Positions 1 to 7,505 of a stretch of 64,000 bases of DNA are shown piece by piece. The notes under the pieces were generated by a model, which was not told the origin of the DNA, did no database searches, and was given only the letters and a program-made list of their open reading frames with translations. The DNA comes from Candidatus Omnitrophota bacterium (GTDB taxonomy: Bacteria; Omnitrophota; Omnitrophia; Omnitrophales; Aquincolibacteriaceae), in assembly GCA_903856085.1 (NCBI GenBank), contig CAIOAT010000044.1, forward strand, positions 25,402 through 89,401, written 5' to 3'. A program made the position numbers and the translations under genes. Position 1 is the stretch's first letter. Each line of letters begins with the position of its first letter.

Positions 1-895
1 AAAGAATGCCCGTGCGTTCATGCTGCTTGCCATCATGCTTTTGATGACGGTCTATCTTCCTGTGATCGGACATTCGGCGGGCGGGGCACGGCGCTGGATC
101 CACATCGGAGGATTCCAGTTCCAGCCCGTGGAGTTCGCGAAACTGGCCTGTTGCATCTATCTGGCGGATTATATTGGACGGAAGATCGCCTGGGTACAAA
201 AGGGGGATGTCCGGGTATTTGTCCCACCGCTTATCTTGATCGGTTTTGTATGTGGTCTGACGCTTCTTGAACCGGACCTGGGTTCTGTGGCGTTCATCGT
301 CATGATGACTTCGGTCATTCTCTTTGTTTCGGGCCTTCAATTGCGTTATGTCTTTGGCGCCCTGGCGATTTTGATGCCGGCTCTGTATTTTTTGATCATT
401 CGCGTGCCGTATCGTCTGAGTCGTCTTGAGGCTTATCTGAATCCGTGGGAAGATCCTCAGGGGTCCGGTTTCCAGATCATCCAATCTTTTCTGGCATTTG
501 CTTCCGGCGGGGTACATGGAGTGGGGCTCGGACAGAGCACGCAAAAACTTTTTTATCTTCCCTCAAGCCATAACGATTTTATCCTCGCGGTAATCGGAGA
601 AGAGCTCGGGCTTATCGGCATTATGTTTGTGGTGGCTCTTTATATCCTGTTTTTTGTCTGCTGCATCCGGATGGCGCGAAGGGCGGATCAGCCGTTTGAG
701 AAGCTCTTGATCACGTCGATTACCCTTCTCATTATTTTGCAAACCGTGATCCATATGATGGTCGCGACCGGCCTTGTTCCGACCAAAGGGTTGCCATTAC
801 CTTTTATCAGCTATGGCGGAAGTTCGATCGTCGTGAATTTGATCGCGGTGGGCATTCTCGTGGCAATCGATCGTCGCAAACGCCACAGTATCTAA
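1..895 (+). CDS. ftsW: SEDS-family peptidoglycan glycosyltransferase FtsW/RodA, 5' end truncated by window start
   Basis: The frame is open from nt 2 and the first ATG is at 20. It has multi-pass TM character and the conserved motif GARRWIHIGGFQFQPVEFAKLA typical of FtsW/RodA/SpoVE. It sits directly upstream of murG as in dcw clusters. Confidence 0.85.
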   Translation, partial: KNARAFMLLAIMLLMTVYLPVIGHSAGGARRWIHIGGFQFQPVEFAKLACCIYLADYIGRKIAWVQKGDVRVFVPPLILIGFVCGLTLLEPDLGSVAFIVMMTSVILFVSGLQLRYVFGALAILMPALYFLIIRVPYRLSRLEAYLNPWEDPQGSGFQIIQSFLAFASGGVHGVGLGQSTQKLFYLPSSHNDFILAVIGEELGLIGIMFVVALYILFFVCCIRMARRADQPFEKLLITSITLLIILQTVIHMMVATGLVPTKGLPLPFISYGGSSIVVNLIAVGILVAIDRRKRHSI

Positions 896-896
896 C

Positions 897-2048
897 ATGC
901 CGGGAACTTCGGATACTCCAAAGGTCTCATCCCCAGCGATGCGCTTGGTGGTTTACGCCGGCCCCACAGGCGGTCATGTTTTCCCCGCGCAGTCGTTTAG
1001 CGAAGGATTTCGAAAGTACTTTCCGGATTCCCGGATCGATCTCGTTACATGTCGTCGGGCGAAATCCCTTATTGATAAAATGCCGCAGGGAATCTTTCAG
1101 TCGGTCTCGTATCTTCCCGAGTTTGGTTTTCCGGGAGGATTTTCTTGGAAAACTTTAAAGCCGTTTTTTCTTTTCCCGTATCTCCTTCTCCAGGCGTTAC
1201 TTTTTCTAAAGCGGACGAAACCGGATCTTTGTGTCGGGTTTGGAAGTTTCGTGTCGTATCCCGGCATGATGGTCGCGCATGGGCTCAAGATCCCGACGCT
1301 CATCCATGAACAAAACCGGGTTCCTGGAAAGGCCACTCACTGGCTTATACCGCATATGGACGTCGTTGCTGAAAGTTTTGAGGGAACGCGATTTCTTCAA
1401 AAACCAAAAATTCTTCATACGATCGGGTTACCTCTGCGGTCGTTTATCGTAGATGCGGCGGCGAGAGCGAAGGGGGGGGCGACCCCGCGTCCGTTTACAC
1501 TGCTTGTAGTCGGCGGATCCCAAGGTTCGCAAGGTTTAAATATGATTGTTACGGACGCGATCGCGTCTTTATCGGATGAAGAAAGGTCCAAAATAGCCGT
1601 TATTCATATTACGGGAGAGCGGGATAAAACTTGGGTTGCGGAGCGTTACGAGCAGCTGGTCTTATCCAATGAAGTTCATCCATTTTATAGTGGCATGGAT
1701 GAGCTTTTTCAAAAGGCGGATCTCGCCATTACCCGTGCCGGGGCGAACACGCTTTTTGAGTTGGCGGCATTCGGAGTTCCGGCGTTCGTGATCCCTTACC
1801 CGCATGCGGGGGGCCATCAAAAGTACAATGCTCAAAGCTTCGCGGAAAAAGGCGGGCTGATTTTTCATGATGAGGCCCCTGGGGCGAAGGACTGGCTGGT
1901 CAAACAGTTGAGGAAAACGATCGAAGATCCAGGATCCCTGGCCGAAATCTCGAAGGCGATGAGAGAGGTGGCGAGGCCCAAGGCCACGGAAGAACTTATT
2001 GAAATAGCCCGAAAGTTGATCGAAACCCATGAAAATCGTACACGATAA
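897..2048 (+). CDS. murG: UDP-GlcNAc:lipid I GlcNAc transferase MurG
   Basis: N-terminal VVYAGPTGGHVFPA glycine-rich loop and GGSQGS motif, about 380 aa, in a dcw context between ftsW and murC. Confidence 0.9.
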   Translation: MPGTSDTPKVSSPAMRLVVYAGPTGGHVFPAQSFSEGFRKYFPDSRIDLVTCRRAKSLIDKMPQGIFQSVSYLPEFGFPGGFSWKTLKPFFLFPYLLLQALLFLKRTKPDLCVGFGSFVSYPGMMVAHGLKIPTLIHEQNRVPGKATHWLIPHMDVVAESFEGTRFLQKPKILHTIGLPLRSFIVDAAARAKGGATPRPFTLLVVGGSQGSQGLNMIVTDAIASLSDEERSKIAVIHITGERDKTWVAERYEQLVLSNEVHPFYSGMDELFQKADLAITRAGANTLFELAAFGVPAFVIPYPHAGGHQKYNAQSFAEKGGLIFHDEAPGAKDWLVKQLRKTIEDPGSLAEISKAMREVARPKATEELIEIARKLIETHENRTR

Positions 2049-6029: not shown

Positions 6030-7276
6030 GTCTCCCTGTTGATATGAAAAACAAATGCGTGGTGGTTTATATCGGCACCCGGAAGCTCGTGGTGATGTTG
6101 GGGGATACGGGAAGCAGTAATCCGCAGGTGCTCCGTCATGAAGAAACCCTCTTCCCTGAAGGTTTTGAAAAGGGATTGGTTTCGAATCTCCAGAACGCGA
6201 GTGCCTCACTTGAAAAGTTGATGAAGGTGCTCTTGCCGCCTGAGGCCTGGGAACAGGTTTCGATCTATGTGGTGCTTGGGAACAGCCGTTTCAAGATGTA
6301 TCGTTTCTCAAGCTGCGAATATTATTCTCCCGAACGGCGTACGATCAGTTCTCATGAGGTTCAGTCCGTGGTTCAGCAGACGCGGAATGTGGCGACGCTT
6401 CCCCTGAACGAATCGATCTTGCAGGCTATTCCAGAATCTTTCCTTGTCAACGACATGCCGGCGGTGCGCAATCCCATAGGCCTTGAGGCCGAGCGCCTCG
6501 GTGTGACGCTACAGATCTACACCATGGAATTCCAAGCCTTTCGCAATATTGCCAAGATCTTTGAGACGCTAGATCTCGATGTGGAGGGTTATTTCCCAAA
6601 GATCCTGCCGCTTTCCGAGGCTGTGTTGGGGGATGCCGAGAAGCAGGAAGGGGGCATGATCCTGGACATTGCAGATGATGCGACCCAGCTAGTGCTTTGG
6701 AAGAATGGCCTTTTGGCCGGAGTGCGGACACTTCCGATGGGCGGACATTATCTTACCCAGTGCTTGGCCAAGGATTGGAATATCGAGGAGCGGGATGCTG
6801 AGAAGGTGAAAGAAAAATTTGCGACGCTCGACATCCGTGAGCAGGAAAGCGAAGAGTTGGTGCCGCTTGTGACGCGTAACGAAAAAGTCCAGCAATCCAT
6901 CTCGCGCAAGGAATTCCTCCAGAAATTTTTCAAACATGCGCATGGATGGATGACCAAAATCCTGGAGTCCGCCGATGGATTCATGCAAGATGAGAAGGTC
7001 CGTTATCCGCACATTCTTTTCACGGGAGGGGCGGTGATGACGGAAGGTTTTCTCGAATGGGTCCAGAAAGAATTCTCGCGCGACGGGAAGCTTGGGATCT
7101 CACGCCATGTCGAAGCTCAACAGGAACTTGTCCGCGATCCGTCCATGGCGTCCGCCCTGGGCATGTTCCGGTGGATTATGACTTACAAGCGTTCCCAGGA
7201 GGCGCTCTTCACCCCGCGTGGTCTCGTCGCCAAGACCGCCGCCGCTGTTCGGGCTTGGATCACGAACTACTTCTAA
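6026..7276 (+). CDS. ftsA: Cell division protein FtsA (actin-like ATPase)
   Basis: N-terminal VVYIGTRKLVVMLGD phosphate-1-like motif and GLVSNL...SLEKLMK, similar to the FtsA GIVxDIEaa region. It has a 416-aa actin fold and directly follows ftsQ. There is no ftsZ downstream. Confidence 0.75.
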   Translation: MSLPVDMKNKCVVVYIGTRKLVVMLGDTGSSNPQVLRHEETLFPEGFEKGLVSNLQNASASLEKLMKVLLPPEAWEQVSIYVVLGNSRFKMYRFSSCEYYSPERRTISSHEVQSVVQQTRNVATLPLNESILQAIPESFLVNDMPAVRNPIGLEAERLGVTLQIYTMEFQAFRNIAKIFETLDLDVEGYFPKILPLSEAVLGDAEKQEGGMILDIADDATQLVLWKNGLLAGVRTLPMGGHYLTQCLAKDWNIEERDAEKVKEKFATLDIREQESEELVPLVTRNEKVQQSISRKEFLQKFFKHAHGWMTKILESADGFMQDEKVRYPHILFTGGAVMTEGFLEWVQKEFSRDGKLGISRHVEAQQELVRDPSMASALGMFRWIMTYKRSQEALFTPRGLVAKTAAAVRAWITNYF

Positions 7277-7505
7277 AAGCGGTCCGGTAGTACGGCCTGC
7301 TAAGCAGCCATTAAGATGCAAAGAAAGCTTGGGACAGTACTCATTTTCAATGGAACTTACAGCCCAAAGCAAGCGCGTACGGAGCAAAAGCGAAAAATTA
7401 CGACCCCTTGTGTCACCCGCCGTAAAAATTCGGGCTTTTCTTTTCTCCTCTAAACTTCTATAATGCGGTCTTCCTAGTTTCAAATTCAACCCGGCTTTTT
7501 CCCAT

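Follow-up and report, generated by a model that had tools for sequence, protein, structure and literature searches.

A division and cell wall gene cluster that ends at a constrained ftsA, with probable lineage-level loss of ftsZ in Candidatus Omnitrophota

Introduction

How does a division and cell wall (dcw) gene cluster come to stop at ftsA, with no ftsZ behind it? The question is raised by a 64-kb stretch of contig CAIOAT010000044.1 (positions 25,402 to 89,401; hereafter the window), in which the gene for the actin-like division protein FtsA is followed by a glycine cleavage operon. Nearly all bacteria have FtsZ, and the canonical dcw cluster reads mraZ-rsmH-ftsL-ftsI-murE-murF-mraY-murD-ftsW-murG-murC-(murB)-ddl-ftsQ-ftsA-ftsZ. 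The first-pass annotation of the window offered two explanations, an ftsZ encoded elsewhere or a lineage with a non-canonical divisome; the second is favoured by the taxonomic placement of the window, by two published surveys (Pende 2021, PMC8178401; Seymour 2023, PMC10066038) and by a survey of 63 related loci. Collectively, the evidence makes it probable that ftsZ was lost at the level of the lineage, while a functional ftsA stayed on as the last gene of a compact cluster for peptidoglycan synthesis and division.

Results

The cluster runs from ftsA into a glycine cleavage operon

Gene calls, taken from the open reading frame (ORF) listing of the window and from NCBIfam profile scans, place ftsW, murG, murC, murB, ddl, ftsQ and ftsA in this order within positions 1-7276, followed by a spacer and by gcvT, gcvH, gcvPA and gcvPB. 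The gene identities and coordinates of the first-pass annotation, which had described a run from ftsW to ftsA without ftsZ after it, an ftsA ending at 7276 and the glycine cleavage operon next, are all reproduced, with gcvT starting at 7506. The features are as follows.

1..895, plus strand: ftsW (SEDS lipid II flippase / peptidoglycan polymerase), ORF 20-895, 5' end cut by the window start; TIGR02614, 342 bits, above cutoff
939..2048, plus strand: murG (alternative starts at 897 and 939); TIGR01133, E = 5e-62
2029..3429, plus strand: murC; TIGR01082, 428 bits, above cutoff
3389..4303, plus strand: murB; NF010480, 308 bits, above cutoff
4251..5207, plus strand: ddl; NF002378, 303 bits, above cutoff
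5214..6029, plus strand: ftsQ-like gene for a bitopic protein with an FtsQ-type POTRA domain; Pfam POTRA_1, E = 3.3e-7, 30.9 bits against a cutoff of 23
6026..7276, plus strand: ftsA, divergent actin-like division protein, final gene of the cluster; TIGR01174, Pfam SHS2_FTSA and FtsA
7277..7505, no strand: ftsA-gcvT spacer of 229 nt at the usual site of ftsZ; no ORF homologous to anything tested
7506..11892, plus strand: gcvT-gcvH-gcvPA-gcvPB glycine cleavage operon (gcvT 7506-8603); NCBIfam above cutoff, gcvPB from Pfam annotation

The truncated ftsW matches its profile from position 71 to position 356 of 357, and the complete gene of 365 aa is found in locus L064, which extends the same contig upstream. 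The 369-aa murG gene call, with Glyco_transf_28 domains, is present on 19 contigs. The FtsQ-type protein has 271 aa, with a basic N-terminus ahead of a single transmembrane segment; its gene directly precedes ftsA, and the two overlap by 4 nt.

With locus L064 included, the cluster reads murE-murF-mraY-murD-ftsW-murG-murC-murB-ddl-ftsQ-ftsA, an order collinear with that of the E. coli and B. subtilis type, tightly packed and with overlapping genes. It departs from that type at both ends. On the 3' side, the place directly after ftsA that canonical clusters give to ftsZ is taken, after 229 nt, by gcvT. On the 5' side, murE forms the boundary (L064 1-5077, upstream of the window), and the canonical mraZ-rsmH-ftsL-ftsI block is not at this locus: none of the four genes was found upstream of murE in L064, where an OmpA-family gene, two small genes without family match (one of 168 aa), a GAF/HD gene and a HIT gene stand instead.

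FtsZ is not found in the window or around ftsA in relatives

Searches of the window for FtsZ were negative throughout: tblastn with E. coli FtsZ returned no match at E <= 10, the tubulin signature motif occurs in no window ORF of more than 150 aa, and an FtsZ profile hidden Markov model (HMM) run on the window with filters off returned noise only and nothing significant. The same tblastn and HMM searches were negative across 949 kb of dcw-flanking DNA from 63 loci, and none of these loci, 53 species-representative genomes included, has an FtsZ at a distance of up to 10 kb from ftsA. Where the gene calls of a locus carry Pfam annotation, Tubulin and FtsZ_C domains are missing from all genes around ftsA. 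A 376-aa minus-strand ORF at 50751-51881, considered as a protein of FtsZ size without assignment, is an antisense shadow of a giant plus-strand ORF.

The spacer itself holds no trace of the missing gene, an ftsZ remnant there or elsewhere in the window having been rejected after negative tblastn, motif and HMM searches. As described in the first-pass annotation, the spacer is non-coding (229 nt against the 230 given) and contains a TATAAT box at 7459-7464; a regulatory reading of these details is not upheld. Specifically, a terminator scan was negative for the proposed hairpin and T-tract at about 7415-7450, where only a 4-bp CCCG/CGGG stem precedes a T-rich run, and a consensus promoter scan found no sigma-70-like hexamer pair in the spacer. 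The predicted fold of the spacer is no more stable than that of shuffled sequence (z = +1.8), and a glycine riboswitch or other RNA element was discarded, with no Rfam match even at E <= 1. A 137-aa minus-strand ORF at 7100-7513 shows no similarity to a small gene that certain relatives carry between ftsA and gcvT, and is treated as a chance ORF overlapping ftsA.

In relatives, the interval between ftsA and gcvT measures 55-230 nt or holds unrelated inserted genes. The inserted genes, considered as hidden FtsZ substitutes, were set aside, as they encode GDSL-type lipases, MlaC and proteins without family match. Separately, more distant relatives share a conserved minus-strand gene of 130-170 aa at this position, without Pfam match and not present in the window, whose product carries the motif VVTCWRKDERFHKEVIEY...HMDIEP...FRWH. 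Its occurrences, in the coordinates of each locus, are listed below.

L039 11248-11763, minus strand: small ftsA-gcvT gene
L058 11371-11775, minus strand: small ftsA-gcvT gene
L061 11330-11812, minus strand: small ftsA-gcvT gene
L038 3314-3769, minus strand: small ftsA-gcvT gene
L009 6306-6710, minus strand: small ftsA-gcvT gene

The cluster end recurs across the lineage

The comparison of dcw synteny in relatives, which the first-pass annotation had called for, covers 63 loci: 10 from look-ups of the exact protein and 53 from an FtsA alignment scan of one genome per GTDB species, with FtsA proteins 37-94% identical to that of the window. All 53 scan loci are labelled Omnitrophota/Omnitrophica or 'uncultured bacterium'. 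The order ftsW-murG-murC-(murB)-ddl-ftsQ-ftsA is found in every one of the 63 loci, with ftsQ before ftsA throughout. Among the 42 of the 53 species loci that are informative, in that at least 1.5 kb is available 3' of ftsA, 33 have gcvT after ftsA, no more than 700 nt away in 25 of them, and the arrangement persists down to 37-38% FtsA identity. The recurrence of the cluster end in 53 species-representative genomes shows that it is no effect of chance or assembly, and this comparison of loci indicates that the ftsA-gcv junction is ancient in the clade and predates the divergence of these species. The identical FtsA gene is additionally present on at least 18 metagenomic contigs from several samples, for example the 112-kb contig ENA ERZ27313059 k141_390834, in which the same neighbours surround ftsA.

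Homologues of this FtsA down to 40% identity all come from metagenome-assembled genomes (MAGs) of Candidatus Omnitrophota. The GTDB representatives whose FtsA is 94% identical include RIFOXYB12_FULL_50_7, which is classified in Omnitrophia; Omnitrophales; Aquincolibacteriaceae (GTDB f__UBA2337), genus XYB12-FULL-50-7 / Aquincolibacterium (Seymour 2023, PMC10066038). The window thus derives from Candidatus Omnitrophota, class Omnitrophia, family Aquincolibacteriaceae, and probably from the genus Aquincolibacterium.

Two further features of the related loci were observed. No match to murB lies between murC and ddl in 13 of the 53 related species, congeners with 94% identical FtsA among them (the loci tied to this observation are L011, L015, L016, L019-L022, L024, L025, L031-L034 and L036), and L015 retains only a murB-like remnant of about 150 nt; murB has therefore left its place in the cluster, by loss or relocation, either several times or not long ago. 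In one Omnitrophota lineage with FtsA about 45% identical (L003, L004 and L050), the place of the gcv operon downstream of ftsA is taken by the gene for a ShlB/POTRA_2 two-partner-secretion transporter, together with a giant gene encoding more than 2400 aa.

FtsA is conserved and under strong constraint

The FtsA of the window matches TIGR01174 with E = 1.4e-44 and 152.7 bits, below the equivalog cutoff of 175.85, and the Pfam domains SHS2_FTSA and FtsA (PF14450 and PF02491) are recorded for the exact protein. Its best sequence matches among solved structures are the FtsA proteins of Vibrio, E. coli, Xenorhabdus and S. aureus, at about 18% identity. The AlphaFold model, with a mean pLDDT (predicted local distance difference test) score of 79.4, has the FtsA-type actin fold topology, with subdomain 1C/SHS2 in place of 1B, and in a Foldseek search of the PDB its top 19 matches are all FtsA (E from 1e-25 to 1e-17, TM-score (template modelling score) 0.59-0.75), ahead of PilM and MreB. 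The phosphate-2 loop reads DIADDAT in place of DIGGGT, without the GGG of E. coli FtsA; its reading as a sign of lost ATP binding was rejected, since the FtsA of S. aureus, whose structure is ATP-bound, has DIGEDVT at this position, and nothing is concluded from the loop.

Across 19 Omnitrophota FtsA sequences, 51 alignment columns do not vary. Conservation is highest in the 1C/SHS2 region, over a stretch that reads QTRSVATLPL...ILQAIPESFLVNDMP.VRNP.GLEAERLGV. At the other end of the protein, a C-terminal tail with the consensus RxWFxNYF, in which W411 and Y415 are invariant and F416 is nearly so, occupies the position of the membrane-targeting helix and is predicted to be helical; its amphipathicity in the window protein is weak, and membrane binding by it is no more than plausible. 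The ratio of nonsynonymous to synonymous substitution (dN/dS) of ftsA is 0.03-0.08 against six congeners and confamilials, as low as that of murC. Judged by this ratio, by a fold that matches FtsA best and by the conserved C-terminal tail, ftsA is an intact and functional gene under strong purifying selection and no relic.

SPOR-domain proteins and other genes of the window

Two SPOR-domain proteins noted in the first pass at 30088-30693 and 31737-32738 are supported by Pfam SPOR matches. Both consist of an N-terminal cytoplasmic part, a single transmembrane segment and a C-terminal SPOR domain.

30088..30693, plus strand: bitopic SPOR protein of FtsN/DedD-like layout, one transmembrane segment before the SPOR domain; Pfam SPOR, E = 1.1e-7
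31737..32738, plus strand: bitopic SPOR protein of DamX-like layout, with a long cytoplasmic N-terminal part and a transmembrane segment at about residues 167-187; Pfam SPOR, E = 1.5e-9

Directly after the second SPOR gene, a plus-strand run at 32735-36548 encodes a PilZ protein, a DUF520 (YajQ-like) protein, a second PilZ protein and a patatin-like phospholipase with a cyclic-nucleotide-binding domain, and appears second-messenger-related. Further upstream, at 19252-22982 (plus strand), a ParB N-terminal-like domain protein is followed by a BatD-domain protein and a protein with TPR and SH3 domains, genes like those of the Bat aerotolerance operon. The 3' part of the window holds two giant plus-strand ORFs. 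The first, at 41881-50187, has 2768 aa, of which about the first 2000 residues are without any match, and its only Pfam domains, B12-binding (aa 2017-2144) and radical SAM (aa 2228-2386), lie near the C-terminus. The second, at 50715-64000, stays open for 13.3 kb to the window end (more than 4428 aa) and runs off the window; its N-terminus includes a hydrophobic segment, Pfam gives no match, and the minus-strand ORFs within it are antisense shadows.

Discussion

Published distribution of FtsZ and FtsA

The pattern seen at this locus agrees with what has been recorded for the phylum. Pende 2021 (PMC8178401) gives FtsZ as absent from Planctomycetes, Omnitrophica and Chlamydiae (Fig. 5 legend) and FtsA as 'also absent' for Planctomycetes and Chlamydiae only; in the accompanying table, the congener RIFOXYB12_FULL_50_7 is scored FtsZ NA, SepF NA and FtsA OGX11215.1, and Ca. 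Omnitrophus magneticus and WOR_2 SM23_29 are likewise FtsZ-negative and FtsA-positive. Seymour 2023 (PMC10066038, Supplementary Note 1) analysed 276 species and reports the Omnitrophota species representatives to be without an ftsZ homologue, except for a lone archaeal-like sequence ascribed to contamination or recent transfer. The FtsZ-negative, FtsA-positive trait is therefore already known for the phylum and even for the genus, although only from a figure legend and supplementary material, and our literature search found no paper that takes up the combination of FtsA with a missing FtsZ in Omnitrophota as a subject in itself. What the window adds is a clean, well-conserved example and the synteny across 53 species, not a new phenomenon.

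One apparent conflict resolves on taxonomic grounds. A 2016 review credits 'Omnitrophica' with FtsZ, which is found there only in 'Omnitrophica bacterium OLB16' (OLB16/SURF_12 lineage). OLB16 has FtsA, as here, but differs in also having FtsZ, whose accession (KXK40362.1) is adjacent to that of its FtsA (KXK40363.1) in the table of Pende 2021 (PMC8178401). This lineage is now regarded as distinct from Omnitrophota (Seymour 2023, PMC10066038), and the older statements that Omnitrophica encode FtsZ arose because OLB16 was then counted in the phylum.

Alternative explanations

A normal ftsZ elsewhere in the genome, which would reduce the case to a simple rearrangement, is quite unlikely. The dcw cluster is already broken at its 5' end, so division genes can disperse in this lineage; strong constraint on ftsA is also what would be expected if the usual partner were still present, and the direct search for FtsZ was confined to the window and the flanks of ftsA in relatives. 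Against these points stand two independent surveys that include a congener and the representatives of 276 species and find no FtsZ in Omnitrophota, the presence in the surveyed table of Aquincolibacterium MAGs of 99-100% estimated completeness (PMC10066038), and the fact that few bacterial proteins are easier to detect than FtsZ. Also unlikely is the idea that FtsA is partnered by a highly divergent member of the tubulin superfamily that falls below marker-HMM thresholds. FtsY, too, is scored absent across the lineage (PMC10066038), a hint that divergence can mimic absence, and FtsA itself is divergent, as its sub-cutoff profile score and its distance from solved FtsAs indicate. Positive evidence for such a tubulin is lacking, however: nothing tubulin-like was detected, even weakly, in the window or in the 949 kb of related loci, and the curated searches of Pende 2021 (PMC8178401) still returned NA. 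The origin of the window in metagenome assemblies brings in an artefact of assembly or binning, either a chimeric ftsA-gcvT junction or an ftsZ lost in assembly. The recurrence of the junction refutes this: at least 18 contigs, drawn from several samples, carry the identical FtsA, and the junction appears in dozens of species whose genomes were assembled independently, which leaves such an artefact with a vanishingly small chance.

Loss of ftsZ in the lineage is thus the explanation we prefer, and the cluster would end at ftsA because of that loss. Several points weigh against it or against the role proposed for FtsA below. Beyond the window, the case for a missing ftsZ depends on published surveys of related genomes, which relied on marker or profile HMMs, and the scoring of FtsY means that divergent homologues may be counted as missing. 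A 2025 paper calls the dcw genes of Ca. Omnitrophota 'highly conserved', with no per-gene detail found. In FtsA, model confidence is low over the 1C segment (residues 97-159), although this stretch is the most conserved by sequence, and the hydrophobic moment of the C-terminal tail is 0.25, no higher than in shuffled sequences, versus 0.51 for the E. coli helix. The scaffold role assigned to FtsA is itself a proposal.

A possible division machinery without a Z-ring

Under lineage-level loss, ftsZ would have disappeared no later than in the ancestor of the surveyed Omnitrophia clade, and phylum-wide according to the literature, and the cells would divide without a Z-ring. FtsA, held at the membrane through its conserved C-terminal tail, would then serve as a cytoplasmic scaffold that recruits or activates FtsQ and an FtsW-based synthase of septal peptidoglycan, with the SPOR-domain proteins binding septal peptidoglycan. 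That membrane-bound FtsA filaments, and not FtsZ or MreB, form the primary cytoskeletal scaffold, one that positions and activates FtsQ and FtsW-dependent synthesis of septal peptidoglycan, is offered tentatively, as a possible arrangement rather than a probable one.

Omnitrophota share membership of the Planctomycetes-Verrucomicrobia-Chlamydiae (PVC) superphylum with the Chlamydiota, which are likewise without FtsZ and in which septal peptidoglycan synthesis is directed by MreB/RodZ. In both, peptidoglycan precursor synthesis, FtsW and an FtsQ-like protein are kept and an actin-family protein is the candidate organiser, so that the replacement of FtsZ by chlamydial MreB resembles in principle the role proposed here for FtsA. 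Chlamydiota differ in having no FtsA either, whereas here FtsA is kept and strongly constrained. The FtsZ-less Planctomycetota (Phycisphaerae, Planctomycetales) have similarly lost ftsZ and kept most other dcw genes; there ftsA is lost too, with few exceptions, and many members divide by budding, in contrast to Omnitrophota, which keep ftsA at the cluster end.

Lineages that septate without FtsZ reveal which parts of the divisome are dispensable. Having kept the whole lipid II pathway along with FtsW, FtsQ and a highly constrained FtsA, but not FtsZ, Omnitrophota amount to a natural experiment on FtsA without a Z-ring. Should the proposed role of FtsA prove true, they would be the sole phylum in which FtsA works without FtsZ, and the conserved 1C segment and C-terminal tail would be its working interfaces.

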